Positions 320-24,651 of a stretch of 30,409 nucleotides of DNA are shown one piece after another. Every line of letters starts with the position of its first letter. Position 1 is the first letter of the stretch. Source of the DNA: a virus; the IMG/VR virus record IMGVR_UViG_3300044675_004870, positions 1-30,409 of that record, one strand, 5' to 3'. The position numbers and the translations under genes were made by a program. Below the pieces are notes generated by a model. It saw only the letters and a program-made list of their open reading frames with translations. It was not told the DNA's origin and did not search any database.

Positions 320-1999
320 TTATGATACTGTTACTGAATCGATCCAAATGTAAGGTTGAGACCATCCACTAATTACATTAACGCATAATTTTATGTAACC
401 ACCTGATAAAGCTTCTACTTCACTACCAGTTAATGTATATGTATGATTTGTCCAAGTTGGTTGCAACGAAATATTTTCAGTATAGAATAAATCTCCTTTT
501 GCTTCAGTTGTACCATTAGATAAAGCCATATTAATAGGTTGTATACCTACAGTTATAGTAGGAGCTGAAGCTGGAGATTGAGCTCTAATTGTAAAAGTCA
601 TTGGTGTATTAGAACCACTAGGAATATAAACATTTTTAATAGGAACTTGAACGAATTCGCTACTACCTACATTAGCGAAAGCTCTATGAATTCTTAAAGA
701 ATTTGTACCAGTATCATATACAGTTGGATCTGCAAAAATAGTAGTAGCATTTTGAAATAAAATCTTTTCACCTTCTGAATCATAAACAAAACTTGACGTT
801 TTAGTAAGTGTAGCACTGTATGCTGCTGTACTTAAAGGCCAGTTATCTACGTTAGAAGATGGTGCTATAATTTGTGCATCTAATGAATTACTAAATATAA
901 TAAATTTTTGAGAAGCAGATGACATTGTAGGATATTCTACTATATTTCTAACTATACTATTAGGACTTTGATAATCAAATAATATTACATAGGCTAAAGT
1001 AGATTCTGGGGTTGGTTGTATCCATTCAATATTAAAATTATCAATATCATAAGTACCAACACCTAAAAGCGAAGAACCTCTTGCAGCATTTACTTGCTTA
1101 AACCAAAAATTATTTATTTTAACTAAAGCACCAGCAGCACTATTAATTACATTACCACTAGTTTGTACGTGCCAATCCCATAAATTGTTAATTACTAAAG
1201 TTTTAGTTTGATATGTGAATGCTTGATTTAAAGTTATAGAACTACTTTGAGTAGCCCAACTGATATTACAACCAGTAGAAGCGTGGTAATAATCTAAAGA
1301 ACCAACAAAAAATCCACTAAATGAAAACCATAAATTACCCATATTAACTTGTAGTCCAATAGGTGCGCTTGGTAAAACAGCATTTGAACTTGCTAAGTTA
1401 ACAAAAGCAAAATTATTAAAAGTAATTCCATTTAACCATAAATTATTAACAGTTCTAAATGCTGTACCAGATTGTGTTGTTGCAGAAGTATTAATAAAAA
1501 CGGTGACACCATCTTGTGCTGTAAATCCATTTGTCCAACCTCCTTGAATGTTAAAATTCTGCTTATTAGTAGTAATTGCAGACAAACTTTCTAGATCTGT
1601 ATTAGCAACTGTAGCTACATAATGATTTGTGTCTAGTCTTTCAGCTTGTGCTCCAGAAACTACATTTCCAGATAAACCTAAATTAACTGTTAGAGCTATA
1701 CTACTAACTGCAATTACTCTTAAAAAGATGCTTCTATTACCAAAAACTGGATCTTTAATAGCAATAACGCTATTTACTGGCACAATTCCAGTTAAATCTT
1801 GAGATGTAGCAATACTATTAGTGCTACCACCATAAGTTAAAGTTCCTGGAATGTTTACCCAAGATCCTCCAGCAACATTAACTGTGTCTCCGCCAGTACC
1901 AACTTGCATTGCTTTTAAAACTGATTTGTATGGGTTTGCAATAGTACCATCTCCAGTAGTATCGTTACCCGTTAAATTATCTGTATACCAAGTAGCCAT
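320..1999 (-). CDS. Tailspike-like protein, putative right-handed beta-helix (pectate-lyase-fold) depolymerase with a C-terminal beta-sandwich-like domain
   Basis: 559-aa ORF. The N-terminus (TGNDTTGDGTIANPYKSVLKAMQVGTGGDTVNVAGGSW) resembles the start of parallel beta-helix proteins. The body is N/S/T-rich and repetitive. It lies between fiber genes. Sampled 60-nt lines give about 32% GC. Confidence 0.5.
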   Translation of the reverse strand: MATWYTDNLTGNDTTGDGTIANPYKSVLKAMQVGTGGDTVNVAGGSWVNIPGTLTYGGSTNSIATSQDLTGIVPVNSVIAIKDPVFGNRSIFLRVIAVSSIALTVNLGLSGNVVSGAQAERLDTNHYVATVANTDLESLSAITTNKQNFNIQGGWTNGFTAQDGVTVFINTSATTQSGTAFRTVNNLWLNGITFNNFAFVNLASSNAVLPSAPIGLQVNMGNLWFSFSGFFVGSLDYYHASTGCNISWATQSSSITLNQAFTYQTKTLVINNLWDWHVQTSGNVINSAAGALVKINNFWFKQVNAARGSSLLGVGTYDIDNFNIEWIQPTPESTLAYVILFDYQSPNSIVRNIVEYPTMSSASQKFIIFSNSLDAQIIAPSSNVDNWPLSTAAYSATLTKTSSFVYDSEGEKILFQNATTIFADPTVYDTGTNSLRIHRAFANVGSSEFVQVPIKNVYIPSGSNTPMTFTIRAQSPASAPTITVGIQPINMALSNGTTEAKGDLFYTENISLQPTWTNHTYTLTGSEVEALSGGYIKLCVNVISGWSQPYIWIDSVTVS

Positions 2000-2002
2000 G
2001 TC

Positions 2003-2212
2003 TTATTTTAATTTTATATTTAGTCCCGATGTTGAGTAAACATTTTGTCCAGCGCTTGATTCGTTTAAAATGTTATTTAAACCACTAGTCAACCAGGTAG
2101 TTTGTACGCTAGTAGTAGGCCAAATTTGAGTAGATCCTCTATAGATCTTGCTTAATTGGTCAGTACCTCTGTATGCTATAACGAGTGTATCGCTGCCTAT
2201 TTTTATCGCCAT
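2003..2212 (-). CDS. Small hypothetical protein in the fiber module
   Basis: 69-aa ORF whose ATG overlaps the stop of the upstream fiber gene (TAATG coupling at 2212). Confidence 0.55.
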   Translation of the reverse strand: MAIKIGSDTLVIAYRGTDQLSKIYRGSTQIWPTTSVQTTWLTSGLNNILNESSAGQNVYSTSGLNIKLK

Positions 2213-3516
2213 TAGTCAATAAAGTATATTGTTGCTGCGTCATAGGTACCTAAAGCATCATATTGTACTTGAGTACCTGACCACACTGAGTTAATTGTAT
2301 TAGGTCCAGTAGAACTAATAGGTCCAACTGCTCCTTGAGCACCTGTATCACCTTGAGCACCTGTAGGACCTGGATCGCCTTGCGCACCTTGTGCTCCAGT
2401 TTCACCTTTGTTACCAACAACACCAACTGTAGTTAATACGTAAGAATAGTATTGTACACCTTGAGTGTACCAAGTTATGTTATGTGTAGTTGAATCCAAG
2501 TTACTTACGTAGATTTTAACAATCATTCTATAAGTAGGATCAACAATAGTAGTAGGCAAAGTTAAATCTGTAGTAACTTCAGCTGGTGTAGAAACATCAA
2601 CCCAACCAATAAGAGCACTACCACTTGTAATCACTGGACCAACTGGAGTTCCTAAAGAATCTGTCAATTGAAGTGTTACGTAAGTCTCAATATTATCGTT
2701 TGATGCAGGTTTTAAGAAGTGAAAATGGAATCTTTGAGTTCCACCAGGAATTACAGCAAAACCAAGTTCTGGTGTAATAAATTCTTGTACTAAAAGACCA
2801 GTTTGATTACTAGTTAAAGTTTTTAATATTGTCTGTTGAGCACCACTTGGAATAGTTGAAATTACTTTGTATGGTGTGATCTCTGAGCTTTCTGATTCAT
2901 TGAAGTAGTATGTTGCGCCTGCGGAAATTCCAGCAGCACCTTGAGCTCCTGTCGCACCGACTTCGCCTTTAGCACCAGTAGCACCTTGCGCGCCTTCGAT
3001 ACCTTGAGCTCCAGCAACGCCTTGTGCACCAGTTGCACCAACATCACCTTTATCACCTTGTACACCAATATCTCCTTGAGCTCCTTGAGCTCCTTCAATT
3101 CCTTGAGCACCTTGAGGTCCAGTAGCACCAGCAACGCCTTGTGCTCCAGTAGCACCAGCAATACCTTGCGCACCTTGTGGTCCAGCAATGCCTTGTGCAC
3201 CAGTTGCACCAACTTCACCTTTGTCTCCTTTTGCACCTGCATCTCCTTGAGCTCCAGTTGCTCCTTGAGCACCTTCAGCACCTTGTGCACCTTGTGCACC
3301 AGTTGGTCCTGGAGGTACAACTAAACCTGTAACTGTTGCGTTAGTAAAATCTTGATCACCGCTCCAGTTAATTCCTTGTGTACCAACTTCCATTGGCAAT
3401 AAGTTACCAGCACCATCACTTAAAGTAACTGGTGTAGTATCTATGGGCGCACTATTACTAGTCTTGATCAGACCTTCGTACGTGGTAGCGACTGTTTGTC
3501 CTTTTAATCCTGACAT
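2212..3516 (-). CDS. Collagen-like tail fiber 1
   Basis: 434 aa. N-terminal anchor, then a long uninterrupted G-X-Y run (about nt 2925-3309, [16 protein letters not shown]...), a globular middle domain, a second short G-X-Y run (about nt 2321-2415) and a small C-terminal domain (...[23 protein letters not shown]). Confidence 0.85.
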
Positions 3517-4118: not shown

Positions 4119-4157
4119 GTCTTTTTCTTTAAATATTCTTATCTCAAGATTTGACAC
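4119..4157 (-). promoter_or_regulatory. Promoter-like motif copy P1 (minus strand: GTGTCA-N14-AATATTTAAAGAAAAAGAC)
   Basis: The 19-mer gtctttttctttaaatatt (4119-4137) is identical to 19049-19067. The upstream box tgacac is at 4152-4157. The motif ends 8 nt before the ATG at 4110. Confidence 0.5.
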
Positions 4158-4808: not shown

Positions 4809-5747
4809 TTATGCTACAGTTGATACGAACTGAGAAGCGTAAGCTGCAGTTCCTAACTTGAACTTGGCCATGAAGTTAACCTGATCTTGTGAAGGATCGT
4901 AGTAGAATCTGAATGCATCTTGGTCGTTGATGATACCAGTACCCATGTACATGTATTTCTTAGGACCTAAGATAACTGCAGAATCACCAGCTGGATCAAC
5001 GATACCAGGAGCAGCGAAAACTTTGATGTTAGTACCTGGGAAGATGAAAGAAGATTCAGCTTGACCAGCTACGTTGTTGATGTTAGGGTATTGCAACAAG
5101 ATAGAGTTACCAGTTGCGATAAGACCTTGAGTCAACTTAGAGTAAGTAGAGTATGACATGTAAGCTACTAAGTCATCTTCTTGCTTCAATGCAACTGGAA
5201 GCAAGTCGATCATAGTCCACATATTTGCAACAGCTGTGTTAGCCGCCCATGCAGCAGAAACAGAAGTAGCGTCAACAGCACCTTCAGCAACTGAAGTTTG
5301 GAACAAAAGACCGTCCAAAGTTGCACCGTCACCAGCCCATAGAGTAGATTCAACGTATTTGTTGATTTCTCTTACTTTCAAGTTAGCGATAGCTTCTTCG
5401 AAAGGAACTGACTCGTGGTAAGCAGAAGGAGACAATTGGCTAGACAACCAGTAGTCGTAAAGTGAGTCAGGGCAAAGTGTTTCTTTCAACATCTTAGCAG
5501 CAACTACGATAGGCAATTGAGTGAAGATAGTTGAGTTTGTACCAGTTTGACCAGAACCGAATCCACAAGTTGCATCTAAGATGTCAACGTTTGCGTCAAG
5601 GATGTTCAAATTGGTAGTTCCAGCAGTTAAACCTGCTTTAACAGTAAGATTGTTCACAGTTTGTGGCTTCAAAAGAGCCTTAGTGATCAAATCAGTTTGT
5701 GAGGTTTGGTCGACGTATGTAGTCAAACCAGATAAATTAAAACTCAT
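4809..5747 (-). CDS. Major capsid protein
   Basis: 312-aa ORF directly after the acidic scaffold-like gene, with a hairpin downstream. Size and composition are typical of HK97-fold capsid proteins. Confidence 0.7.
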   Translation of the reverse strand: MSFNLSGLTTYVDQTSQTDLITKALLKPQTVNNLTVKAGLTAGTTNLNILDANVDILDATCGFGSGQTGTNSTIFTQLPIVVAAKMLKETLCPDSLYDYWLSSQLSPSAYHESVPFEEAIANLKVREINKYVESTLWAGDGATLDGLLFQTSVAEGAVDATSVSAAWAANTAVANMWTMIDLLPVALKQEDDLVAYMSYSTYSKLTQGLIATGNSILLQYPNINNVAGQAESSFIFPGTNIKVFAAPGIVDPAGDSAVILGPKKYMYMGTGIINDQDAFRFYYDPSQDQVNFMAKFKLGTAAYASQFVSTVA

Positions 5748-5779
5748 GATTAATTGTTTTTATTTTTGATTGATTTAGT

Positions 5780-6379
5780 TTACTTTTTTAAGCTCTTAAT
5801 GAACTCTAATTTTGCTTCGATTGAATCGAATTTTTCTGGAGTAGCAGTAGTTACTTTAGGAGCAGCACCAGCAGCAGGAGCTTTAGAGAACTTTTCCATT
5901 TTAGTTTTCATAGCACCCATTTCTTCTTTAATGGCACCTACTTCTTTAGCAACCTCTTCAACTACTTCGAAGATCATTTTCATCTTCTCAGCAATCTTTT
6001 CTTCGATTACTTCCATTACTTTTTCTTCCATTGCAACGTCAACTTTGTCTTCAGTAACGACTTCTTCGCCAGCTACTTCAACAACATCTTCTGCAACTTC
6101 AGGAGCTTCAGCTTCAGGTGTTTCACCTTCAGAAGATACTTCCATAATTGTACCAGTCTCATCGACTTCGATTTCGATACCGCCTTCTAGTTTGTGTTCA
6201 CCTGCTGGAGCGGGAGTCTTGGTAGTTCCGTCTTCAGAAACAATAAATACAGGAAAACCTGGCTCTAATCTTTCATACTCAACAACTGTTACGCCGTCGA
6301 TCAACTTCGCTACTTCCAACTTAACTTCCATGCCAAGAACCTCGCGGATTTGGTTTAACTTAAGTTTGTACATAGTCAT
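5780..6379 (-). CDS. Scaffolding protein
   Basis: 199 aa, strongly acidic and E/K/V-rich with a helical character, placed between the protease and capsid genes. Confidence 0.65.
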   Translation of the reverse strand: MTMYKLKLNQIREVLGMEVKLEVAKLIDGVTVVEYERLEPGFPVFIVSEDGTTKTPAPAGEHKLEGGIEIEVDETGTIMEVSSEGETPEAEAPEVAEDVVEVAGEEVVTEDKVDVAMEEKVMEVIEEKIAEKMKMIFEVVEEVAKEVGAIKEEMGAMKTKMEKFSKAPAAGAAPKVTTATPEKFDSIEAKLEFIKSLKK

Positions 6380-6416
6380 ATTATTTTTATTTAAAACATG
6401 GGCTTCGCCCTTTATT

Positions 6417-6445
6417 GTAAATATTTATACTTTTCACCCTGACAC
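6417..6445 (-). promoter_or_regulatory. Promoter-like motif copy P5 (GTGTCA-N14-AATATTTAC)
   Basis: aaatatt at 6419-6425 and tgacac at 6440-6445, the same 14-nt spacing as P1. It lies 40 nt upstream of the scaffold ATG. Confidence 0.45.
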
Positions 6446-6451
6446 ATCTCG

Positions 6452-6481
6452 CTTAAATATACTACTAGTGAGTTTTGAAAC
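6452..6481 (-). promoter_or_regulatory. Promoter-like motif copy P6 (GTTTCA-N15-ATATTTAAG), in tandem with P5
   Basis: cttaaatat at 6452-6460 and tgaaac at 6476-6481. Spacing is identical to P3. The upstream box overlaps TTGAAA (6475-6480) of the plus-facing repeat copy A. Confidence 0.45.
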
Positions 6482-6561
6482 AGAAATGAGCAACTAGCAT
6501 ATAAAGTAGGGTTTAACGTCCAAACAAGGTTTAAAGGGGAGACAAGGACTCAACTCAAGAT
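6475..6561 (+). repeat. Inverted-repeat copy A of a promoter/leader-like block; partner at 28200..28300
   Basis: 6493-6547 is the exact reverse complement of 28228-28282 (55 bp), and 6475-6486 pairs with 28289-28300. TTGAAA-N19-TATAAA sits at 6475-6505. The block ends at the ATG of ORF 6562. Confidence 0.9.
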
Positions 6562-6756
6562 ATGAAACACTTCTTAAAATATACTTTAGTCTGGATTAGT
6601 CAGAACTTGTCTATTCCATTTTGGATGGTAGGACATGTTCACCTATCAGTAAATGTTTATGAAGATTTATATGAGATCCTAATGAGCTTAGGAATGAATA
6701 TTATAGTAGCTGTTGGATTCCTTATTGATTACTTAGAAACAAGAAAAAGGGGCTAA
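6562..6756 (+). CDS. Small hydrophobic protein, the only plausible plus-strand gene
   Basis: 64-aa ORF starting right at the end of repeat copy A. It has a hydrophobic stretch (LMSLGMNIIVAVGFLIDYL). Its stop codon lies in the loop of hairpin 6747-6767. Confidence 0.4.
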   Translation: MKHFLKYTLVWISQNLSIPFWMVGHVHLSVNVYEDLYEILMSLGMNIIVAVGFLIDYLETRKRG

Positions 6757-6767
6757 GAAAGCCCCTT
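6744..6767 (-). terminator. Rho-independent terminator after the protease-fusion gene
   Basis: Stem aaggggc/gcccctt (6747-6753 and 6761-6767) with a 7-nt loop. On the minus strand it is followed by UUUUUCUUGUUU; no U-tract follows on the plus strand. Confidence 0.65.
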
Positions 6768-6825
6768 AATCAATAACCTAAAGAATAAACTATAATGAAA
6801 CACCGTAAAGGTGAGAACAGTATAT

Positions 6826-8127
6826 TTATCCTAGTATTCTTTTAATCTTTTCATATTTCTTCTTAGCCTCTAATTCTTCCATATCTGCTAAGATACCTTC
6901 AATTGAAAAACCTCTTAGTTCTCCAGCTTTAATTCTAGCCCAAGTCTCTTTATTGTCAACTTTCATAGTTACAACCCAACTTCCTTTTGGTAAATCATAA
7001 CCATAAATAGTGTTGGCTTTGTCAGTTTCAGGATCTTCTACAATCCATGACTCAAAAATGTAGGCTCCAGCTTCGTTCTCTTCGTGATCAGTGTTAACGT
7101 CATTAGTTCTTGCCTCTTTAAAGTACTTCATGCAGATTTCTTTGATAGTTTCAGGCGAGAATCTTACGAAATACTTTTCACCATCTTCATCAATTCTTGG
7201 GATACTGATATTCGGCACCATCGCGGGACCAACTAAGATCATTTTATCCTCTTCTGCTAATTTAAACATTGAGTGGTAGTAACCTTGTTTAGGCATGTCG
7301 ATTGGTCTAACACCAGCTCTTCCCGCTGCGTCCTTAACTACTTCAATTTCGATTTGACCATTAGGCATAGTCACTAAGTATTGAACCCATCTGTGCTTAC
7401 AATTTGGACCGCCTTTAAATGACCAGATACTGTAGGTTGATGCTCCATCGATACCAAATCCACTATTAACAGCAATATCTGACATCGCTTGTACTTGTGC
7501 TTTAGTGTAGAAGTTATCTAAACCTACCATTTGTACACAGAATTCTCTAGAATTAGAACCAATTGATCCAGTATACTTGTAAAGGTAGAGCTTTTTGTCA
7601 CCTTGGTTTAAAACCTCTGATGTACTTGTACCAGATCCACCTTGTGATGCATTTGCGAAGCATTCTTTTCTAAATAGATCTGCTAAATCCTCTTCTTTTG
7701 TACCAAGTTCTTTGGCTAATGCGAGAATTGTATCAACTACGTATGCATCTGTAGTCCATGAGTAATCGATTACCTCTTCTGAGCTAGCTAAAATGGCTTT
7801 AGTAACCAACTTTTGCTTCTTATCTCCTGGATCTACGTAAGGTGCCAAACCTGCAGTGTCAATTTCCATCTTTTCTTCCCAATAAGAATAACATACTGCA
7901 GCTGCCTGATCTTCTGGTTTACCTTCGTTAATTAATACTGGTATGCAACGAGAAATAAACTCGTCCTGTGACTCGCCAGCACTTGGTTTTACGAATGAAT
8001 ATTGTTTACCAAAGTATCTAAAGTCCAACATAATTGCTGGCTCTTCTACTAAGGATACTTTCTTTACACCAGTAGCTTCATCTTCTGAGAGGATGCCAAG
8101 GTCAATGATTTTTTTATCTCTTTCCAT
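6826..8127 (-). CDS. Head morphogenesis (Mu F / SPP1 gp7-like) domain fused to an XkdF-like prohead protease domain
   Basis: 433 aa. The middle carries ...SREFCVQMVGLDNFY...GGPNCKHRW (MuF-like C...C / GGxNC[KR]H motif). The C-terminus ...VNTDHEENEAGAYIFESWIVEDPE...LPKGSWVVTMKVDNKETWARIKAGELRGFSIEG matches my recollection of the XkdF (Peptidase_S78_2) pattern. Confidence 0.6.
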   Translation of the reverse strand: MERDKKIIDLGILSEDEATGVKKVSLVEEPAIMLDFRYFGKQYSFVKPSAGESQDEFISRCIPVLINEGKPEDQAAAVCYSYWEEKMEIDTAGLAPYVDPGDKKQKLVTKAILASSEEVIDYSWTTDAYVVDTILALAKELGTKEEDLADLFRKECFANASQGGSGTSTSEVLNQGDKKLYLYKYTGSIGSNSREFCVQMVGLDNFYTKAQVQAMSDIAVNSGFGIDGASTYSIWSFKGGPNCKHRWVQYLVTMPNGQIEIEVVKDAAGRAGVRPIDMPKQGYYHSMFKLAEEDKMILVGPAMVPNISIPRIDEDGEKYFVRFSPETIKEICMKYFKEARTNDVNTDHEENEAGAYIFESWIVEDPETDKANTIYGYDLPKGSWVVTMKVDNKETWARIKAGELRGFSIEGILADMEELEAKKKYEKIKRILG

Positions 8128-8135
8128 TGTCTTAT

Positions 8136-8639
8136 TTATTTGATATCGCCATTGCTGAAGTCATCTAAGTTAAACTCCTTCAATTCGCTTTTAATGTCTT
8201 TGCCTCTAGCCACTAGTCTTTTGAATGCATGCCAGAGTCCATACTTTTTCACCATTCTATAATTCTCATCGATAGAAAAGACCTCGATCGAAGCTAGAAC
8301 GAGCGCTACAACTTTAGTTAGTAACCACTCGATGCTAAAGAAACGAAATAAGATGTCTCCAAGAATGAATTTGTCAATTAAAAAGAACATAATAATGGTT
8401 CCTTCGTACAAGAACATCTTAGAAATGATCTTACTTAGACCTCTTGACGTGATTTTTTCGCCTAATTTTTTAGCTTTCCATACGCCAACAATAGTGTCAG
8501 CAATAATTAAGAAGCCCACGGTAAACATAATACCTTGAATGGGTGCAAATAGAGCGCTTAAAATGGCTATAAGTTTCATAGAGTTTTCTTGTAGAGCAGC
8601 TTGCAAACATGCAACTTGTTCCATTAGTTCTTTTTTCAT
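8136..8639 (-). CDS. Holin-like membrane protein (Phage_holin_4_1-like)
   Basis: 167 aa with several hydrophobic helices. Carries ...LIIADTIVGVWKAKKLGEKITSRGLSKIISK... and ...SIEVFSIDEN..., which resemble that holin family. Confidence 0.5.
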   Translation of the reverse strand: MKKELMEQVACLQAALQENSMKLIAILSALFAPIQGIMFTVGFLIIADTIVGVWKAKKLGEKITSRGLSKIISKMFLYEGTIIMFFLIDKFILGDILFRFFSIEWLLTKVVALVLASIEVFSIDENYRMVKKYGLWHAFKRLVARGKDIKSELKEFNLDDFSNGDIK

Positions 8640-8640
8640 G

Positions 8641-11037
8641 TTAGATACGTGCTATGTCGTTGATGCGCTTATCAGCTTCTTGTTGACTCGTCATTTCACT
8701 TGCAACAACGTATGTTTTTATGATAGGAGCTTGACCTTCTGTACCAGGTATAGCTGATCCACCTCCCATTTGGTTTATTGTTGATATGATACCACCGAAC
8801 ATTTCAGTAGATCTTGCGTTAATTACTGATTCACCAGCAGATAACATCGCTGGAATTGAGTCTGAAGTACCAGATCCAGGTCCAACAACTAGACCACCCA
8901 TTGCAAATTTGCTAGGTCCACCAGCTGCACCGCCTCCACCTCCACCAGCATTTGGTTTTGGTACTTGTACACCAGCGATCTTAGCAATACTAGCTAAACC
9001 TGATGCCACAGCTACACCCGCAGCGATTGGTGCTAAAACAGGACCAACAACTGGAATACCAACTGTAGAAGCATAAGCTGATGTGGCTGATTGGTATGTG
9101 GTAATACTAGTTTCAGCAATCTTTAATGCCTTATACGCTAAAGTGTTTTCACCAAATAAACTAGCAGCTGCACTTAATGTACCTGCTGTTGCAGATAACT
9201 GTGCGTTAAGTACTGCATCGTTGATGGCTTTTTTGGAATCAGCAGCTTGTCTTTCAATCTCAACTCTTGCTGCGGCAGCATCTTCTTCTGACAATTTAAG
9301 GTCTTCGATCTGCTTTAACTTAGCCTCTTTTTCCAATTCTACAGTCATTAACTGCTTTTGGAAACCTTCTTCAACTAATGAGAACTTAAAATCAGCAATA
9401 CCTTGAGCATTTTCTTTCTCAATGGCTGCTACCTTTTCGTTGTTAATCTTAGTAACTGCTTCAATTAACTTGGCTTTTTGCTCCTCGGTCAACTGTCTTT
9501 GGTTGATCTCAGCAATTTGGTTAGCCAGTTGGATCTCTAGTTCCTTCTTTCCTCGATCAATCTCGTTCTCGATCGAAGCGAGAGTGTACTCGTCTTTTAA
9601 TGCTAATAGATTTGCTTGATACTCCTTCTCTTTTTCAGCTCTCGCCTTAGCTTGTTCGTCTAAAAGTTTCTGAGTATCTTGTGCTTGCTTCTCGTCAAGA
9701 GCTTTTTGTTGAGCGACAAGAGTTTCTCTAAGTGCTTTTTCCTCTTTAGTTAAGTTCTTTTTCTTGTCAAGAGCATCAATTTGTACTTGAATAGATTTAT
9801 CAGCAGTTTCTTGTTGAATTCTGAGCTCTTCCTGCGCTCTCTTTTCTTGGTCCTTAATACTATCAAGATAAAAAGAGTTTTCTAAGTCCTTGATCTTCTG
9901 AAGTGCATCTTTTTGGGCTTCTAATGCTTTCTCTCTTCTCTCTTTTGCTTTATCAGCAGCAGCTTTTGCAGCGTCTTTAGCTTTTGAAGCAGCATCTTCT
10001 TGTGCCTTTTTAGCATCATCAGCTTTTTTCTTTTCGAATTCAGCTTGTGCAACTCTAGCATCGTTATTAAGATCTTTAACAGCTTCTTGTAATTCTACGA
10101 GTTTCTTCTTTTGCTCGTCACTTAGTTCACCATCGATCTTTTGTAGTTTCAATAAAGCATTGATGGCTTCTTGTTTAGATGCTACCTCTTCTTTATTGAT
10201 CTTTTTCTTTTGTTCTAGTAATTGCTCTTCTGTAGCACCTTGTGCTTGCATTAAGGCTAATCTACGTTTAGATTCAGCTATTTGTTTGTTAGCAGCAGAA
10301 CCTACATCGTCTAATGATTCGATAGTTTTATCTGCATTGTCTCTGGTCTTAGCAGTACTTGCATCATCGATCAAACCACCAGTCAAGAACGAAGCCACAT
10401 TACGCATTGTATCTAGTACAGTGTTAATGGCGTCATTTAAGAAATCAAATTGAGCAATAAATTTCTTGATTGGGTTGATTGCCATGGCAATACCAACTAC
10501 CAATAAACCTAAAGCAGTAACAATTAGACCAATCGGGTTGGCAGTAAGTGTGATGTTTAATGCTTTGTTGATACCATTTAGGATTGCGGTACCAGCTGCT
10601 GCGGCTTTCTCTAAGATGATTCTTCTCTCTAACTGAGTATTGATCAATCCATCTTTGATTGCGCGCACAGACATCACGACAGCAATTGCTTGTTGTGCCT
10701 TTGCTTCTATCTTGGCTAAGTTTTCTGACTCTTTACCAAACAACGTAGTAGCTTGTGAAGCCAATGCAAAGGATCCACTAACCAAGTCAGCAGCACCAGC
10801 GATGGTTTGTAGTTGCTTTTCAGCACCTTTACCTTCGAAAGCTTTGTCTAAGTCTTCTTTAGCTGATCTAGCCTTAACTAATTGATCTTGAAGTTGTTTG
10901 AATTCTTGAGTACCAAACTGCGCCGACTTTAACGACTCTTCTAAACTCTGAATCGATGCATCTAAGTCATTGATGGAGCTGATTGTTTTATCAACTCCAT
11001 CAACTTTTAGTGAAAATGCTATTTCTTTATTTGCCAC
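8641..11037 (-). CDS. Tape-measure-like protein
   Basis: 798 aa (GTG start in the track). Long coiled-coil K/E/A/Q-rich regions, hydrophobic segments (LTANPIGLIVTALGLLVVGIAMAI), a Gly run, and the C-terminal motif GSGTSDSIPAMLSAGESVINA seen in tape-measure and internal virion proteins. Confidence 0.65.
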   Translation of the reverse strand: MANKEIAFSLKVDGVDKTISSINDLDASIQSLEESLKSAQFGTQEFKQLQDQLVKARSAKEDLDKAFEGKGAEKQLQTIAGAADLVSGSFALASQATTLFGKESENLAKIEAKAQQAIAVVMSVRAIKDGLINTQLERRIILEKAAAAGTAILNGINKALNITLTANPIGLIVTALGLLVVGIAMAINPIKKFIAQFDFLNDAINTVLDTMRNVASFLTGGLIDDASTAKTRDNADKTIESLDDVGSAANKQIAESKRRLALMQAQGATEEQLLEQKKKINKEEVASKQEAINALLKLQKIDGELSDEQKKKLVELQEAVKDLNNDARVAQAEFEKKKADDAKKAQEDAASKAKDAAKAAADKAKERREKALEAQKDALQKIKDLENSFYLDSIKDQEKRAQEELRIQQETADKSIQVQIDALDKKKNLTKEEKALRETLVAQQKALDEKQAQDTQKLLDEQAKARAEKEKEYQANLLALKDEYTLASIENEIDRGKKELEIQLANQIAEINQRQLTEEQKAKLIEAVTKINNEKVAAIEKENAQGIADFKFSLVEEGFQKQLMTVELEKEAKLKQIEDLKLSEEDAAAARVEIERQAADSKKAINDAVLNAQLSATAGTLSAAASLFGENTLAYKALKIAETSITTYQSATSAYASTVGIPVVGPVLAPIAAGVAVASGLASIAKIAGVQVPKPNAGGGGGGAAGGPSKFAMGGLVVGPGSGTSDSIPAMLSAGESVINARSTEMFGGIISTINQMGGGSAIPGTEGQAPIIKTYVVASEMTSQQEADKRINDIARI

Positions 11038-11048: not shown

Positions 11049-11089
11049 GTTTTTCTATTCTTAAATATTTCTAAAGTGACTATTGAACT
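11049..11089 (-). promoter_or_regulatory. Promoter-like motif copy P4 (AGTTCA-N14-AATATTTAAGAATAGAAAAAC)
   Basis: aaatatt at 11063-11069 and tgaact at 11084-11089, which overlaps the stop of the 1579-aa gene. It lies 26 nt upstream of the tape-measure start. Confidence 0.45.
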
Positions 11090-14000
11090 AGTTTGTTGTT
11101 ATGTTAACTACACTTCCATTAGTATTACTTGATGTCAATAGGATTCTTTTTGTAAAATTAGTATCTCCATCACCATTAATTGCTGACATTTTAACTATAG
11201 CACCAATTGCATATGCGGGGAAACCATAGAAAGCATTTGGTTGATAAAATCCGTAGTAATACAGTACATCACCTTTTATAACCATTGAACCTGCAGCACT
11301 ATAAGAAGCATTTGGATTAAATCTAGCTTCATCGAACTCTATAATTCTATCACCATTAGGATCCAATTTTGCAATACCTCTATATTGTACACCATTAATA
11401 GATGCTGTATTAAATGTTTGTACATATAAATTATCAAATGCATCTACTGCTAAAGTTACATTAGTTATAGTAGGTGGATCTACAAAAACAAATGATCTAA
11501 TATAAGTTCCATCCATTAAACCAGTTTCTAAGAATCTTCTGATTCTGTAATTACCTGATTCTAATGTTAATGAGTAGATTCTGTTTTGAGAATCCATTAC
11601 TAAATTAGATCTCTTATCAAAACTTTGATAACTTAATTCTACAGTACCACTTGCATTCATTACAACAACGGGAACTGTATAGTTAACACCTTTCCATCTT
11701 TGTAAATTGTTTAAGTAGATTTTTCCATCTCTTATTGCAATAATTATAGGTGCAGCAGTATTTGATTGTGTTCCTGTACCAACTACAAAGCTATTATCTC
11801 TAGTACCATCATTAAATAGGCAAATTACACCCCATGCATCAGTACTATTATAAGTTCTAAATGATCCAGTAACTATGATTCTATTATCGTCTAAAGCAGC
11901 GATACCACTTACTAAAGGTTGATTAGTTGTTCCACTTGTAAATCCAGTACCAGCATTAAATGTTGGATCAATGTTACCATAAAAATCTAATTTAACAATA
12001 CCATTTACAGGTACACCTTTATAGTGAGTAAAGTTACCAACTACATAAAGGCCATTATCATGAATAAGAGTTTTGCTACTAATATTTTGAGTAGATCCAG
12101 TTCTGCTAAAACCAATTCCAACATCAAAGGCACTTAATTTTTCACCAGTATCACCATTAATAGCTATGATACCATTAGAACTAATACCATCATAAGATGC
12201 AAAGTTACCGTTTACATAGACTACTTCGCCACATGGAGGACAAACACCACAGTTAAAGAAACTTAAGTTACCTAAAGTGTCTACGTAGTATGTGTTTCCA
12301 GATCTGTCTTTATAATAACCTGGTAAAACCATTGTAGTACCTTCTGCATCTCCAAAAACTACAGTTGAGGTAGCCATAGTTTCGGTATTGCCGTAAATTG
12401 TGATTGGTGTACCATCAGTATCGCAACAAACTGTACAACCAGAAGCTTCATTGCCAAAATATTCAGCATCTAATGGGTAGTAAATGTCTGCACCGCACTC
12501 ACCTCTTTCAACAATGGTAATTTTACCAAAGATAGGAATAACTGAATACTGACAAGCACATACTAAATAACTAGTTGATGGTGCAATATCCATGTACATT
12601 ACTTCTTCAGTGTCACAATCAATATAACTAATAGCACCACCTGTAAGTGAAGAGATTTCGTAATCATAACACTCACAAGGAACTGGAGGTCCAGCGCACT
12701 CTTCACATGTTTCGTATACGTTATCTACTGGCTCACCAGGTGTTGTCCCTTCTTCGATAATTACCCAACACTGATTACTATAAGATAAAGAGTCAACAAC
12801 ATCTCCAATGTTAAGTGGTGTAGGCGAAGTAAATCTAGCCAAAAGAGTAGGTTCTTCACAGTTTTCACCAACATAGTGGTAATCACAAGAACATCCAGTA
12901 CATGTAGCAGTTGATATTACATCACCATCTGCGTCTGTGATTAAAACATCATTTGATCCAATTTGTTTCCAATATGCTGCGCCACCTCTAGTCAAAGGTA
13001 CGTTGTCAATATAGATTACAGTTGAATCACCAAATGCTACTGTATCTGAGTACACAGTTTGTTCTAATGTCTCACAACATACGTCACAAAGAGCAAACTC
13101 AGTAGATTTGAATACAACTTGGTGTGGATATACGATAATTGGGTTACAGTTACAAAAAGATCCTACACCAATTGCCCATGTAACACCATTGATTACGTTT
13201 ACACTGTAAGGAGATCCAGTTTGTGCATACCAACCATTAGCTGGAATTGTACCAGCAGAATCTAAATATACATTGGCACTTGAAGCCAAATCTGTAGAAC
13301 TTGTACCCCAAACAGTAATGCTTGCACCTTCGCAACAGTAAGCTTCGCATGAAGTAGTACCAACACAAACAGTATAAGGATACAAATCTGGTGGGTTACA
13401 GTTACAAATAGGGTTTAAATATTGTATAATAACACCATTGACGGTTTGTACAGTTGTAGTACCATCAGAATAATAGCCATCTGGTGCAGGTATACTTCCT
13501 AATGCATCGTTATAAATTACTGTTGAATTTGCAAATAAAATATCGTTAGTGAAGTATTGACCAACTTGGAAAGTACAACAATAAGCTTCGCATGCTGTAT
13601 TTCCAAAACAAAGTTCTTTTTGCTTATAAACAGTGGTGTTTGGTGGAATAACCAAACCAATGTTACCACCAACTTTGACTAGTTCGACTCTACAGTTTGT
13701 CTCTGAGCCAATAACGTAATCAGTTACTTTGTTTACTAAGTACCACGCATCTTTAACGAAAATGTAGTCATTAAATTTAAGTTCTAAAATGTCTTGGTAG
13801 CTCAATATAAAGTTGGCTTCAACAATTCTAGAGAATGGATCGAACATTGTGTCATACCAAGTCTTCCAGAATACGTTAAAACAACTATAATTACTTATGT
13901 TTTTAGATAAACCTGAAGTTTCAGTATCATAAAGAGGCAATTCATTCTCCCAATTTAGATCAAATGTAGATACACTTACAGGCCATGTAGAAAACTGACT

Positions 14001-15827
14001 CATCAAAGGATAAGAATTCTTCGATACGGGTACTGAACCCGTTTGTGATACTGGGTTCCAGTTACTATTAATGTACCATGTTATTGGAGAAGGTTGTAGA
14101 CCATTGTAATAAAGTAGTCTTAATTTAGGTTGAATTGGTTGACGTTCAGTATCAGTGTCTTTTGCTAAGTGTGGAATTAAGAATGCATAAGCTGCATCAC
14201 TTGGATCTGTACCACCAATTGGATACAGAGGAGTTGGAGCAAATTGATCTTGTATAACTTTGGTACCTTTAATTAATTCATTATTAGAATCTAAGTTTAA
14301 TTGACCATAAGTCTGCTTATAGTCTAGTTGATAACCATAGTTAACAAAGTCTGCATCTTCTTGGTCCTTATAGACTTGTAGTCTCTCTTGACCATAGAAT
14401 AGAGGCTTAATCTTCATATCCTTTGAGCCATCTAACATGGTAGTCCAATCTTTTTGAGTTCCTTGTAGTATCCAATCTTTCCAAGGTGTAATCTCAAAGT
14501 GTTTCTCATTGTCCTTTGAAGGTACGAATACTAAACGGAATCTATTAATGATTGAACGCATAAAGTCTATCTTACGAATGTTCGTAGGCATAAATGAGCT
14601 CATCGCAACTGTAGAAGGTACTGATGTTGTATACCAATTACAACTAAAGAATGTAATGTAAGAAGTGTTAACAGGAGCAACAGGACCGATACCTTCAACT
14701 TGTAATTTAACTACTTGTCCTAAAGTTAAAACTGCTGATAAAGATTTTGTAAATGATTGTGGTCCTTGTAATACTGCTTGTGGCGATGTTGTAGATAAAA
14801 CTGTACCTGTATTAACATCAACAATCTTAAATAGGACTGCTGTGTTTGCTGCTGGATTTGACCATACTCCTTCTACATAACCACTAACTTCAAATGTAAA
14901 AGTACCAGGTGTCTCTGCTGTGTAGTGACTAGTTGTAGGATTGTATGCATTCGCAGGATCAATGATCTCATTTGGGAATTGCATATCGACAATATATGGT
15001 ATACCAGAACCAATACCAGTACCTACATCATTAGTAGCACCAAAATCATCTGCATTAAAACTAATATCTGCACTAATTAGAGCTCTTGCCTCGTTTTCAG
15101 CAACGACAAACAAACCAGTAAATAATGGATCTGATTCAAGGAATGTAGACTCATAAGTATAACCTGTTTCATTAAAGATTGCATCCCATAATGCTTTAGC
15201 TTTAAGAGTTGGTTTAAGTTGTGGAAAGTTAATAGCCTCACTCGCTGTAGTAAAACTAGCTACGCCACCAATTGACATTGTATTGTTTCTGGGTTGTGGT
15301 ACTCCAGCTGAAGTATACAAATAACCCCATTCAATTAATGGATAAACTACGTTACCACCTAAAAGACCACCAGACCAACTATTAACCACGTTATTGTAAG
15401 TTAACGAGTGGTTATAAGCTGAAAGGTTAACCTCACTTAAGAAGCCACCACCAATTTTAGAACCAAAGTCAGATGTTTCGCCATAGAAATTGATCTCGTA
15501 TTGGACATCATCTTGCTTTTCGTTAACATAGATTGATAAGAGTCTAATGTTACCAAGAGCAAAGAAGATACCATTATCATTAATATAGGCATCTGCTTTT
15601 TTACTGGCATCAAAGTCAGTAGAGTTTACGTTGAATGCAGCTTTAAAGAATGGTCCGTTTTGACCAGTGTGTGGTACTTTAAAGGTACGAGAGAACACTG
15701 AATTGGCTGCAAGCGGGTCTTCAATGTTGGCTACTGACAAAGTCAATTTGATTGGCTCTGTAGGAAAAAGATCTAACCTTCTGTAGGTTAGATCTCCTGG
15801 TGCTTTTACAAATAATTGTACGCTCAT
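11088..15827 (-). CDS. Giant tail / host-recognition protein: N-terminal structural region, four Cys-rich modules, C-terminal seven-blade propeller-like domain
   Basis: 1579-aa ORF coupled to the upstream gene (TAATG at 15827). Repeat modules and delta-60-like blades are visible in the translation (see findings). Confidence 0.7.
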   Translation of the reverse strand: MSVQLFVKAPGDLTYRRLDLFPTEPIKLTLSVANIEDPLAANSVFSRTFKVPHTGQNGPFFKAAFNVNSTDFDASKKADAYINDNGIFFALGNIRLLSIYVNEKQDDVQYEINFYGETSDFGSKIGGGFLSEVNLSAYNHSLTYNNVVNSWSGGLLGGNVVYPLIEWGYLYTSAGVPQPRNNTMSIGGVASFTTASEAINFPQLKPTLKAKALWDAIFNETGYTYESTFLESDPLFTGLFVVAENEARALISADISFNADDFGATNDVGTGIGSGIPYIVDMQFPNEIIDPANAYNPTTSHYTAETPGTFTFEVSGYVEGVWSNPAANTAVLFKIVDVNTGTVLSTTSPQAVLQGPQSFTKSLSAVLTLGQVVKLQVEGIGPVAPVNTSYITFFSCNWYTTSVPSTVAMSSFMPTNIRKIDFMRSIINRFRLVFVPSKDNEKHFEITPWKDWILQGTQKDWTTMLDGSKDMKIKPLFYGQERLQVYKDQEDADFVNYGYQLDYKQTYGQLNLDSNNELIKGTKVIQDQFAPTPLYPIGGTDPSDAAYAFLIPHLAKDTDTERQPIQPKLRLLYYNGLQPSPITWYINSNWNPVSQTGSVPVSKNSYPLMSQFSTWPVSVSTFDLNWENELPLYDTETSGLSKNISNYSCFNVFWKTWYDTMFDPFSRIVEANFILSYQDILELKFNDYIFVKDAWYLVNKVTDYVIGSETNCRVELVKVGGNIGLVIPPNTTVYKQKELCFGNTACEAYCCTFQVGQYFTNDILFANSTVIYNDALGSIPAPDGYYSDGTTTVQTVNGVIIQYLNPICNCNPPDLYPYTVCVGTTSCEAYCCEGASITVWGTSSTDLASSANVYLDSAGTIPANGWYAQTGSPYSVNVINGVTWAIGVGSFCNCNPIIVYPHQVVFKSTEFALCDVCCETLEQTVYSDTVAFGDSTVIYIDNVPLTRGGAAYWKQIGSNDVLITDADGDVISTATCTGCSCDYHYVGENCEEPTLLARFTSPTPLNIGDVVDSLSYSNQCWVIIEEGTTPGEPVDNVYETCEECAGPPVPCECYDYEISSLTGGAISYIDCDTEEVMYMDIAPSTSYLVCACQYSVIPIFGKITIVERGECGADIYYPLDAEYFGNEASGCTVCCDTDGTPITIYGNTETMATSTVVFGDAEGTTMVLPGYYKDRSGNTYYVDTLGNLSFFNCGVCPPCGEVVYVNGNFASYDGISSNGIIAINGDTGEKLSAFDVGIGFSRTGSTQNISSKTLIHDNGLYVVGNFTHYKGVPVNGIVKLDFYGNIDPTFNAGTGFTSGTTNQPLVSGIAALDDNRIIVTGSFRTYNSTDAWGVICLFNDGTRDNSFVVGTGTQSNTAAPIIIAIRDGKIYLNNLQRWKGVNYTVPVVVMNASGTVELSYQSFDKRSNLVMDSQNRIYSLTLESGNYRIRRFLETGLMDGTYIRSFVFVDPPTITNVTLAVDAFDNLYVQTFNTASINGVQYRGIAKLDPNGDRIIEFDEARFNPNASYSAAGSMVIKGDVLYYYGFYQPNAFYGFPAYAIGAIVKMSAINGDGDTNFTKRILLTSSNTNGSVVNITTN

Positions 15828-19048: not shown

Positions 19049-19087
19049 GTCTTTTTCTTTAAATATTTTGGTTTACGTTTTTGAACT
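19049..19087 (-). promoter_or_regulatory. Promoter-like motif copy P2 (AGTTCA-N14-AATATTTAAAGAAAAAGAC)
   Basis: 19049-19067 is identical to 4119-4137. The spacer aaaacgtaaaccaa nearly matches P3's aaaacgcaaactaa. The box tgaact is at 19082-19087. Confidence 0.5.
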
Positions 19088-19089: not shown

Positions 19090-20313
19090 TTAATCTGGCA
19101 TGAACTTAGTGGTCTTTCTAAAGAAAGCATAGTTAGCAGCTTTATCTAGTGACAGAGCGTACCTGATTGCATCCATTGCGTGGTTATTTGCATCTATTGG
19201 TTTGTCTGTGTCAGCTTTCCAACAGTAGACTGAGTACTCATCTAAAATGTCTTTGGAATTAGGGTGCACAAAGACCTCATATTGCTTGATCTTGTCAATA
19301 CCAGTTCTAATTGAGTCAGGACCTTTATACGCGGGTTCAATCTTCCAACCCTTTCTCTTAAGTTCTTCTATGGATTTAGGTTCTGCTGAATCTGCGATGA
19401 TCTGTGCATTCTTGGGTACACCTAATTTGACCATTCGTTGGTGTATGTCCTCGTTAGTTAAGTTTGTCTCATAGATTATCTGTTCAACCCACATTTTGCC
19501 ATTGTGTTTGCAAACTTTTACTAACGCTGCTGGATCTGATGCAAAACCAAAGTCAAGACCATAAGTAGTGTCCACTCCCGGCGGGGCAATGCCACTTTGC
19601 CAATCAGAGAAGATCTTACCAACAATACCCTCGGTCCAAGCGCCCATTATGTGGTGATCGTAGTACTCAGGATCCAAGTCTTTCATGCGTTCCCATTCTG
19701 CGATTTTCTTAGCATCTAAGTTATGAGCATTGATGTGGTAAGTGGTGTGAATAAACTCGTGGTCTATAAACCATTTTGGGTTTGGTTGGCCATCGATGTA
19801 CCAGCGTTTGTGGATCCAGTGTCTTTTAGTCGTAGGGTTGAATAAGATAAAGATCTTACGCTCTACATCTTTGGTACGAAACGAGTCATTCAGTTTGATA
19901 AACTCTTCTTCTGATGGTAACTCTGTGGCCTCGTCAATCAATAAGTGGGTTACTTTAGCAAGACCTTTACCTTTTGCTTGCATTGTCCCGTCGGCAAGCT
20001 TCATGGCGTGTGTGATTATCATGTTGCCATTCAACTTGTTAGTGATCTCATCACCATCGATCTTTAAGAAGTTCTTGATGCTCCATTGTTCAGCAAGATC
20101 CAAGATGTCCCTATAGATTGAGGATTTGATTGACTTTTGAGTATAACGAGCAACGACTCCTCGAAAGAAGTCATCGCCCATTAGTTTGATCAAGAAATAT
20201 GCAGCTGCTTGAGTTGACTTACCACTACCTCGCCCGCCGGAGATCAGGTAATAAGTCTTGTCTGAGTAGAACAATGGACCATAAGCTGGCAATACCTTGA
20301 ACTCTTTATCCAC
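19090..20313 (-). CDS. terL: Terminase large subunit (PBSX / Terminase_3-like)
   Basis: 407 aa. Walker A ISGGRGSGKST, Walker B-like HLLIDEATE, and nuclease-domain motifs YGLDFGFASDPAA, IADSAEPKSIEEL and HAMDAIRYAL. Confidence 0.9.
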   Translation of the reverse strand: MDKEFKVLPAYGPLFYSDKTYYLISGGRGSGKSTQAAAYFLIKLMGDDFFRGVVARYTQKSIKSSIYRDILDLAEQWSIKNFLKIDGDEITNKLNGNMIITHAMKLADGTMQAKGKGLAKVTHLLIDEATELPSEEEFIKLNDSFRTKDVERKIFILFNPTTKRHWIHKRWYIDGQPNPKWFIDHEFIHTTYHINAHNLDAKKIAEWERMKDLDPEYYDHHIMGAWTEGIVGKIFSDWQSGIAPPGVDTTYGLDFGFASDPAALVKVCKHNGKMWVEQIIYETNLTNEDIHQRMVKLGVPKNAQIIADSAEPKSIEELKRKGWKIEPAYKGPDSIRTGIDKIKQYEVFVHPNSKDILDEYSVYCWKADTDKPIDANNHAMDAIRYALSLDKAANYAFFRKTTKFMPD

Positions 20314-23806: not shown

Positions 23807-23822
23807 AATTTAGTCGATGTTT

Positions 23823-24569: not shown

Positions 24570-24651
24570 GTCTATGTTTATTTAGGTTATGTATTCAATT
24601 TTTGGTACGCGAGAAATTGTAGAGCTTTGTTGTTAACAAATTGTATAGAGA

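Follow-up and report, generated by a model that had tools for sequence, protein, structure and literature searches.

Background

Mu G/Gin, P1 C/Cin and Salmonella Hin are site-specific invertible segments with crossover sites of 26-34 bp, and lambda nutL/nutR and HK022 putL/putR are leader elements duplicated 3' of two promoters. In T4-type phages, recombination between repeated promoter cassettes (PeSLs) shuffles open reading frames (ORFs) (PMC2839356, PMC4122927); a moron, in the concept of Hendrix and Juhala, is a promoter, a gene and a terminator inserted between two genes (PMC2839356); and promoter reuse is widespread in prokaryotes (PMC3575422). Here we analyse a stretch of viral DNA of 30,409 nt (IMG/VR record IMGVR_UViG_3300044675_004870, positions 1 to 30,409), referred to as the window, which represents a phage genome that was assembled as a circle of 30,289 bp, with a 120-nt assembly overlap (1-120 = 30290-30409). 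It carries one short block twice in inverted orientation, copy A directly before its plus-strand gene ORF64 and copy B upstream of a gene for a 58-aa helix-turn-helix (HTH) protein. The block is probably a promoter with its 5' untranslated leader, present twice and recently copied by way of sequence boxes that both sites share.

For comparison, about 100 related loci were gathered through the protease, portal, capsid, ORF64 and HTH proteins; they are cited by number (L001 and so on) where they must be told apart. The phage family to which they belong consists of uncultivated phages of about 30 kb, mostly from freshwater samples.

The inverted repeat

A repeat search returned the pair I1, formed by 6475-6568 on the plus strand (copy A) and 28207-28300 on the minus strand (copy B), 94 nt long, 85% complementary and 21,638 nt apart. 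The letter-level description in the first-pass annotation of this DNA proved accurate throughout: the 55-nt core 6493-6547 is the exact reverse complement of 28228-28282 (55/55), 6475-6486 pairs with 28289-28300 at all 12 positions, and between the two lies a 6-nt divergent patch, TGAGCA in copy A and CTTAGC in copy B. Beyond the core, one A/T mismatch and a 14-nt segment found in copy B only are followed by AACTCAAGAT in both copies. ACAAGG stands at 6524 and again at 6542, 18 nt apart; copy A adjoins the ATG at 6562, and copy B, its end taken as 28200, lies 63 nt from the ATG at 28136. The statement that no other non-coding repeat rivals this one also held, the next longest exact inverted repeat in the genome being 14 nt and the longer direct repeats being collagen-like coding repeats and the 120-nt assembly overlap only. 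With a next-best inverted repeat of 14 nt against a 55/55 match, chance is therefore excluded as the source of the pair.

Each copy can be read as a promoter followed by a 5' leader. In copy A, the -35 box TTGAAACA (6475-6482, plus strand), whose core TGAAACA (6476-6482) is part of a box conserved across the phage family, is followed by the -10 box ATATAAA (6499-6505; class consensus RTATAA) with a predicted start near 6508-6512, and by a purine-rich leader without significant fold (6506-6561) that ends in AGATA and runs into the TGAAACA of the ORF64 start. Copy B has the same -35 box TTGAAACA at 28293-28300 and the same -10 box ATATAAA at 28270-28276 on the minus strand, with a putative start near 28267-28263. 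At about 134 nt, the leader of copy B is longer than that of copy A, which measures 56 nt. The 6-nt patch falls in the spacer and can equally be aligned as one insertion, one substitution and one deletion that keep the spacer length, so that the difference between A and B is readable as compensating indels preserving the distance between the boxes. The 3' end of copy A, ACAAGGACTCAACTCAAGATATGAAACA, aligns by hand at 22 of 29 positions with a more distal part of copy B, ACGAGGATCTAACTCAAGACTTGAAACA; on that alignment, the homology would reach the -35 box of the next promoter, and the copy B leader would have grown by internal repeats and not by a single 14-nt insertion.

Searches of viral contigs with three DNA patterns recovered the element from L001 only, and two DNA patterns found it in no metagenome contig; either the element is confined to the nearest relatives, or the searched collections hold no relevant samples. 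A miniature inverted-repeat transposable element or other transposon was considered and rejected, there being no terminal inverted repeats by eye and a target duplication of at most 2 nt at copy A.

A promoter class of the phage family

The outer boxes of both copies belong to a class of the form TGAAAC(A)-N17/18-(R)TATAA(T), in which the base before TGAAAC is free. The pattern TTGAAA-N17-20-TATAA has four matches in the window against 0.35 expected, at 6475 on the plus strand and at 28170, 28300 and 28543 on the minus strand; TGAAAC-N17/18-TATAA also has four in the window against 0.115 expected, and the stricter TTGAAAC-N17/18-TATAA occurs 13 times against 0.38 expected in 345 kb comprising the window and its relatives. 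The family supplies 18 distinct instances, whose boxes never vary and whose spacers are unrelated; TTGAAAC is followed by A in 17 of them and TATAA is preceded by a purine in all, and the 15 nt upstream are A/T-rich. Many instances lie 18-40 nt 5' of an ATG that opens an ORF and point towards it. Relatives carry arrays of three to five class members in the intergenic region ahead of the early genes, and the window has four members, including one near-identical pair.

Boxes that stay fixed while spacers vary freely are a promoter signature, and the enrichment in the window and in the 345 kb agrees with the first-pass view that the outer boxes are those of a promoter. Its further proposal, that one regulator or sigma factor drives two oppositely oriented early units, is upheld by sequence comparison as far as a shared promoter for two oppositely oriented units goes; 'early', by contrast, is an assumption only, and a TGAAAC -35 core would equally suit a sigma factor of the phage itself. 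A 156-aa protein encoded at 21059-21529 (minus strand) aligns over its full length to the model of the extracytoplasmic function (ECF) sigma-70 superfamily. It is a divergent member: the TIGR02937 match has E = 1e-6, under the curated cut-off, the best named matches are Bacteroidota ECF sigma factors, and it matches no PHROG family. ECF sigma factors recognise an AAC-type -35 element, of which TGAAAC is a classic example. The holoenzyme that would read the class is thus either that of the host primary sigma factor or that of the phage ECF-like sigma factor. A homologue of the ECF-like protein, equal in length and position, is present in L094.

ATGAAAC in place of TTGAAAC in L001, L105 and L045 was considered as promoter decay after loss of the ORF and rejected: the first base is free, because conserved promoters upstream of the HTH gene (P1, below) read ATGAAAC in L105 and GTGAAAC in L094.

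Copy A and the antisense gene ORF64

The cargo of copy A is ORF64 (6562-6756, plus strand), which encodes a conserved 64-aa membrane protein with two helices and runs against all of its neighbours. Database homologues number 2,828, with identities of up to 98%, and a 23-sequence alignment contains 22 invariant columns, some of them polar residues inside the helices; the invariant residues include W11, S13-Q14-N15-L16, P19-F20-W21, G24-H25, H27-L28, E38, N46 and Y57. AlphaFold2 predicts a helical hairpin (predicted local distance difference test score, pLDDT, 75), and no family was found for the protein in Pfam, PHROGs or NCBIfam. Judged by this conservation, the plus-strand ORF64 is a genuine gene under strong purifying selection. 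Its first 8 nt, ATGAAACA, resemble the -35 box of the family. ORF64 deserves notice as a small membrane protein of phages that is strongly conserved and found very widely; homologues also occur in contigs of 28-88 kb from large phages (the longest on record being 147 kb), where they adjoin clamp-loader, Cpn10/Cpn60 and Hsp20 genes.

ORF64 ends in a G+C-rich hairpin (6747-6767) that overlaps its stop codon and serves as the minus-strand terminator of the protease gene; it may also stop transcription of the plus-strand unit, if weakly. On the other side, about 25 nt from copy A and divergent from it, lies a conserved block 5' of the scaffold gene (6400-6450, minus strand; GAGATGTGTCAGGGTGAAAAGTATAAATATTTACAATAAAGGGCGAAGCCC) that resembles a late promoter for scaffold and capsid; it contains GACAyATCTC in eight of eight aligned relatives, only the y position varying. 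Copy A, ORF64 and the hairpin at 6747-6767 thus form a promoter-gene-terminator unit set between the protease and scaffold genes.

The same junction holds ORF64 in antisense orientation in L041, L043, L046, L075 and L084, and in L075 and L046 the homologue at the equivalent antisense position stands behind a different promoter of the same class. In L012-L014 and L018, ORF64 is found elsewhere and in sense orientation; coordinates of ORF64 in relatives include 4001-4207 in L078-L083, 13289-13477 in L014 and 3895-4083 in L046. L033 and L101 carry other cargo at the protease-scaffold junction, which appears to be a hot spot for accessory genes. GIY-YIG-like ORFs were seen in this gap in L033.

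Copy B and the region upstream of the HTH gene

Copy B lies in a 407-nt intergenic region after the last gene of the fibre module. In the direction of transcription, this region contains a third promoter of the class (P3), a unit of about 135 nt closed by a strong terminator, two AAAGTGTAAAGTG repeats, copy B, the proximal promoter P1 and the HTH gene (27960-28136, minus strand), the first gene 3' of copy B and P1. P1 (TTGAAACAATAAGTATTTATATAGTATAA; 28142-28170, minus strand) has a -10 box that ends 4-5 nt before the ATG, and its boxes TGAAACAA and TATAA are invariant in all six aligned relatives. P3 (28515-28543, minus strand) directly follows a 102-aa gene and heads the unit that runs to the hairpin terminator at 28374-28404, which is outside the repeat and 74 nt upstream of copy B.

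Several further features of this region were noted. The stem at 28374-28404 shows compensatory changes in L010 and L098 (CCAGGG...CCCTGG to CCAGAG...CTCTGG), which supports a functional hairpin. The P3 unit (28374-28543, minus strand) has a significant fold (z = -2.9) and is partly conserved in L094, L098, L101 and L105, and a 20-aa micro-ORF in it (MRFIINFKMAEKDSRVFLYR) is present in the window and L094 and not conserved in L101 or L105; the unit is a candidate phage small RNA. AAAGTGTAAAGTG occurs twice 5' of copy B (28329-28341 and 28352-28364, minus strand), outside the duplicated block, and both repeats are kept in L010, L094 and L098 while the intervening 10 nt vary; in L094, the second repeat is at the same time the -35 box of P1. 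A 32-nt imperfect inverted repeat, I2 (27937-27968 / 28301-28332), brackets the HTH gene. The AAAGTGTAAAGTG repeats and I2 are candidate regulator-binding sites, again outside the duplicated block. Transcripts from P1 would be leaderless or would code for a 51-aa HTH form starting at Met8 (alternative start 28115), a form that is called on some database records (P0142); the 58-aa form can be made from transcripts that begin at copy B or P3. In L033, a 47%-identical HTH homologue (9922-10296) is encoded by the other strand than the capsid and fibre genes and converges with them at a bidirectional terminator, so that the orientation of the HTH module varies within the family.

Presence and absence in relatives

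At the ORF64 locus, promoter and gene occur in all four combinations. The window has both; L084 has ORF64 and lacks the A-type promoter and leader (about 85 nt are missing, the junction reading ...TAATAGAG|AGATATGAAACAC); in L001 and L105 the A-type promoter and leader stand alone, ORF64 being absent; and both are missing from L035 and L037. Identity between L084 and the window is 82-85% overall and nearly complete around ORF64. In L001 and L105, the A-type promoter including its spacer is identical to the window at 28 of 29 positions, in flanks that are only about 75% identical, and a terminator directly follows promoter and leader. At the HTH locus, about 161 nt that include copy B (28165-28325, minus strand; bounded by a TGAAA direct repeat) are present in the window, L009 and L010 and absent from L094-L100, although the latter are 92% identical to the window across the HTH and helicase genes and have the terminator, both AAAGTG repeats and P1. 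Since the P1 boxes are invariant in the six aligned relatives, P1 is therefore the ancestral HTH promoter, to which copy B was added. L105 has the A-type promoter and no copy B. Relative to close relatives, both copies are thus lineage-specific insertions, recent and dispensable.

Copies that are each variable between genomes agree within this one. Copy B of L010 has five differences from that of the window just after the -10 box and copy A of L001 at least eight leader differences from that of the window, yet copies A and B of the window agree at every one of them. Each copy has its own spacer variant, the A type being common to L001 and L105 and the B type to L009 and L010. A parallel exists in L046, where a 36-nt inverted pair of the same promoter class (6497-6532 / 7379-7414, 92% identical) flanks an antisense cassette that is inserted behind the capsid-proximal gene and encodes a GIY-YIG-like protein of 195 aa besides an ORF of 79 aa; the outer copy adjoins a terminator directly, with no sense ORF following it. 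We count this pair in favour of the copied-promoter interpretation.

Origin of the duplication

Taken together, these observations suggest the following scheme. RNA polymerase would start about 6-8 nt past the -10 box, at roughly 6510 (plus strand) and roughly 28265 (minus strand). From copy A it would transcribe ORF64, an antisense, moron-like unit between the protease terminator and the late promoter of scaffold and capsid; copy B would join P1 and P3 as one more promoter in a stack that serves the HTH-helicase operon. As a consequence, ORF64 and this operon would be expressed with the same timing. The module was probably copied from the ORF64 locus to the HTH locus; the route was probably recombination, or a switch of template, at the short and conserved box TGAAACA, and the two copies may since have been homogenised by gene conversion. 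Their inverted orientation would follow from the target promoter being on the opposite strand, so that the module lands co-oriented with it.

The junctions support this scheme. TGAAACA boxes delimit the homology in each copy: those of copy A stand at 6476 and 6563, the second being the ORF64 start ATGAAACA, and those of copy B at 28299 and 28169, the second being the -35 box of P1. Such boxes at both ends suggest box-mediated recombination or template switching and would make the -35 box itself a recombination site. The distal end of copy B, AAGACTTGAAACA, reproduces the native context of the ORF64 start, GAGATATGAAACA, as seen in the element-less L084. Copying from A to B is the more likely direction, because this match is joined by the 28/29 identity of the A type in L001 and L105 and by the absence of copy B from L105. 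The identity of A and B where L010 and L001 vary indicates a very recent copy or homogenisation by gene conversion, and the copy-specific spacer variants favour partial conversion; the 55-nt identity is better explained in this way than by an ancient constrained RNA or operator.

Several points weigh against this interpretation. Motif statistics are the sole basis for the predicted promoter activity of copies A and B, and a generic sigma-70 scan calls neither: the hexamers TTGAAA and TATAAA each match the canonical TTGACA-N16-18-TATAAT at five of six positions, and the hexamer spacing is 19 nt here and 18 nt in most family members, while the scan accepts 16-18. The near absence of Shine-Dalgarno sequences and the Bacteroidota-like ECF sigma factor hint at a Bacteroidota host, yet the class is unlike the Bacteroidota consensus. 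The primary sigma factor of Bacteroidota prefers TTG/TAnnTTTG, but TTG-N18-20-TAnnTTTG is not enriched in the window (5 matches, one of them intergenic, against 2.7 expected); a Bacteroidota-type promoter was for that reason rejected as an account of the block, and the dominant candidate early promoters of the window resemble the canonical TTGAAA/TATAAT and not the TTG/TAnnTTTG type. The leader shared by the two copies is longer and G-richer than the A/T-rich leaders of 18-40 nt behind other class members, so that an additional role for it is conceivable. The antisense promoter and leader persist without ORF64 in three or four relatives (L001, L105, L045 and L042), which is unexpected if expressing ORF64 were the only job of copy A. 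Finally, about 31 extra nt at the left junction of copy B are unexplained by a simple box-to-box exchange, as is the internal repeat expansion of its leader by any single exchange.

A broader form of the copied-promoter idea is that TGAAACA serves both as the -35 box and as the crossover of a PeSL-like shuffling, so that modules and morons move between intergenic sites; we regard this as conceivable and hold it with considerable doubt. If true, it would cover ORF64, whose start ATGAAACA mimics the box, as well as cassettes with homing endonucleases; the inverted copies would be accounted for as well, since a module would in every case be inserted in the direction of the resident promoter, and the inverted pair could occasionally flip the structural arc as a by-product. 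Were the class read by the phage ECF-like sigma factor, the cassette would in addition bring new genes into a phage-specific regulon.

Alternative explanations

The copied promoter competes with two explanations that place the function of the block in its RNA or in a binding site. One holds that the 41 nt after the -10 box are a shared cis element, either an operator for the 58-aa HTH protein (at the ACAAGG or TAGCA repeats) or an antitermination signal of the nut/put type. It would account for the unusual length and G content of the leader and for ACAAGG or ACGAGG being present twice in copy A and four times in copy B, and the persistence of the A-type spacer (28/29) across genomes only about 75% identical would be unusual if neutral. 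The leaders, however, are unstructured (fold z = +0.77, the value of copy A, +0.13 and -0.58; between -0.6 and +0.8 over both copies and the L001 and L075 equivalents), folding gave no stable hairpin inside the duplicated block, and the whole window has no Rfam family at the gathering threshold, with only weak, terminator-driven noise on 27900-28560 at E <= 10. L001 has ATGAGG and ACAAAGGGG in place of ACAAGG, the first half of the L105 leader differs behind the same promoter, L010 differs at five positions right after the -10 box, relatives whose HTH proteins are 81-88% identical lack the element entirely, and profile scans of the genome's ORFs gave no N-, Q- or NusG-like protein. We consider a shared cis element quite unlikely, and the first-pass suggestion of an invariant leader or operator under selection is not supported, on the same grounds, the copies being lineage-specific, variable in L010 and L001 at these very positions and without RNA structure. 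The other explanation takes the main product of copy A to be non-coding: it could be a short RNA that stops at the protease hairpin, or transcription could run antisense through the protease and late genes and so dampen or insulate late expression while early promoters fire, with ORF64 as an optional passenger. It fits L001, L105 and L045, in which the antisense promoter and leader are followed by a terminator hairpin and no ORF, and L042, in which an intact TTGAAAC promoter is aimed into the 3' end of the protease gene, again without an ORF; moreover, the hairpin at 6747-6767 has no U-tract on the plus strand, so antisense read-through into the protease gene is likely. Against these stand the strong purifying selection on ORF64, whose ATG abuts the leader, and L084, which keeps ORF64 with the promoter lost or never present; L035 and L037 have no antisense promoter at the junction, so the function would be dispensable, the putative short RNAs have no significant fold besides the terminator (z = -0.19 in L001), and copy B is left unexplained. 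A mainly non-coding role is unlikely on this balance.

The remaining two explanations concern the structure of the genome. The first-pass annotation had offered the inverted repeats as a recombination substrate, which would flip the 8.46-kb arc of scaffold, capsid and fibre genes against the 21.6-kb arc and give two genome isomers. A perfect inverted identity of 55 bp suffices for low-frequency homologous exchange, the agreement of A and B where L010 copy B and L001 copy A differ suggests that the copies interact via gene conversion, and module orientation does vary in the family, the L033 HTH homologue being opposite the capsid gene. L033 is nevertheless not the expected isomer, its protease gene still preceding the scaffold gene. 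No invertase, integrase or other recombinase was found among the ORFs scanned, and no recombinase catalytic domain in comparisons of 30 of the 34 listed ORFs with Pfam, 10 with PHROGs and 5 with NCBIfam, the remainder being the 1,579-aa gene (11088-15827) and three short ORFs (60-71 aa); the likeness of the 58-aa protein to invertases is limited to their HTH domain. Every available contig that spans a copy (few contigs; no reads) shows the parental junctions, namely the window, an independent 30,386-bp contig of the Joint Genome Institute (JGI) and L009, which spans copy B with both flanks at 100% identity. Nor do about 20 longer related loci have a comparable inverted pair: self-comparison of loci of at least 9 kb gave only the 36-nt pair of L046, and that of a further five only a local 20-nt repeat in L101. 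Each arc has its own promoters, so no regulatory gain is evident, and an inversion switch is in our estimation very improbable. That copy A is an assembly chimera or misjoin, the other possibility raised at the outset, is barely credible. Short-read assemblers often break or misjoin at repeats, and L076 does end at the repeat edge, three bases into ORF64, as a repeat-induced break predicts (arithmetic on the ends of Logan contig SRR27430019_6983 likewise puts one of them at about 28282, the core edge, but is given no weight here); but the A-type promoter is found at the equivalent locus in the independent assemblies L001 and L105, the JGI contig has intergenic lengths equal to the window's, including the same scaffold-ORF64 gap of 182-188 nt (100 nt in the element-less L084), and copy A differs from copy B in spacer and 3' end, so it is no pasted copy.

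Genome context and further promoter candidates

All plausible genes of the genome except ORF64 are on the minus strand. They comprise the genes for a DEAD/ResIII helicase (25995-27872), an HNH endonuclease (24759-25280), the portal (22658-23806), the ECF-type sigma factor, the large terminase (19090-20313), the holin (8136-8639), with tail genes between terminase and holin, the XkdF-type prohead protease (6826-8127), the scaffold (5780-6379), the major capsid protein (4809-5747) and fibres of collagen-like and YadA-like type (320-3516, and from 28874 to the end of the window). A search of the window for tRNA and tmRNA genes gave none. The nearest matches of terminase and protease are Flavobacteriia phages (about 33-36% identity), and Shine-Dalgarno sequences are almost absent genome-wide, with A-rich stretches preceding start codons. 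The host is probably a member of the Bacteroidota, because Shine-Dalgarno sequences are lacking and the nearest terminase matches and the ECF-sigma resemblance point the same way. A capsid query had no match in genome contigs, and ORF64 was found in only three contigs of metagenome-assembled genomes (Phycisphaerales, Chitinophagaceae and Bacteriovoracaceae), which is uninformative on the host. By DNA similarity, 5700-8200 has no GenBank phage match; a helicase query of viral contigs gave no relatives, pattern-based retrieval being limiting there.

Two additional motifs recur in front of genes. ATATTTAA(A)GAAAAAGA occurs four times in the window against 0.02 expected (4120-4136, 11052-11068, 19050-19066 and 23821-23837, minus strand), with a variant at 6400-6444 (minus strand), and begins 26-31 nt 5' of the start codons of structural and packaging gene blocks; two of the copies also have TCAAAAACGyAAAC in common further upstream. 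The motif is a candidate for a late promoter or a leader and might be recognised by the ECF-like phage sigma factor. GTATATTTACTGTATAA lies upstream of the helicase gene (27892-27908, minus strand) and recurs nearly exactly before multi-gene antisense cassettes in the protease-scaffold gap of L041 and L043, so that it may represent a third promoter class; with it, three candidate classes are defined for the family. The gap at 24570-24758 (minus strand) contains the sole intergenic match to the Bacteroidota-type promoter consensus, TTGCGCATTTATAGTTTAGTTTTATTTTTG, followed by a hairpin with a T-run (GAGGCCTACAGTAATGTGGGCCTTTTTT), possibly specifying a short transcript 5' of a 149-aa gene.

Comparison with known systems

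Like the Gin, Cin and Hin systems, the window has inverted repeats that flank a segment holding tail-fibre genes. It differs from them in that no recombinase gene was found among the scanned ORFs, the repeats here are promoters by their predicted boxes, the segment also holds scaffold and capsid genes, and no alternative isomer is present in the contigs. The duplication of a leader element 3' of two oppositely pointing promoters recalls nut and put, although the element has no stem-loop, no antiterminator gene was found, and close relatives with the same operon do without it. With a moron, the locus shares an autonomous unit (ORF64, copy A and hairpin) set between protease and scaffold genes, absent from L035 and L037 and transcribed against the flanking late genes. 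The promoter, however, is not private, being a copy of, or donor for, the promoter of the phage's own early operon, and gain and loss of the promoter are independent of those of the ORF, the four combinations being represented by the window, L084, L001/L105 and L035.

Closer still are promoter reuse and the PeSLs. As in prokaryotic promoter reuse (PMC3575422), near-identical upstream regions precede non-homologous genes and no transposable element is recognisable; this case differs in being that of a phage and in a traceable junction microhomology (TGAAACA) that coincides with the -35 box. With PeSLs it shares a short repeated intergenic module with a sigma-70-like promoter and an A/T-rich upstream region, end points of accessory-ORF indels in the module (in L084 at copy A, in L094-L100 at copy B), a promoter without an ORF (L001 and L105), a terminator that abuts a promoter (in L046 and at P1 of L105) and a shuffling proposed to proceed by recombination in the conserved promoter parts. 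It departs from them in that the repeated block has no stem-loop (the terminator lies 74 nt upstream at copy B, and copy A has none) and carries a long 5' leader, and in that two near-identical inverted copies 8.5/21.6 kb apart take the place of many clustered direct copies in a hyperplastic region; the 30-kb genome is unrelated to T4, and mini-circles or exchange products are unobserved here. By analogy, the block would work like a PeSL or a reused promoter, yet we do not class it as a PeSL. No new regulatory principle needs to be invoked: this would be ordinary promoter reuse by recombination and not a new switch. It would nonetheless offer a clean natural example of the rewiring of phage expression, a whole promoter with its leader having been copied before an unrelated operon, and the idea of PeSLs and promoter reuse may thus extend beyond the T4-type phages to this family of small, mostly freshwater phages.

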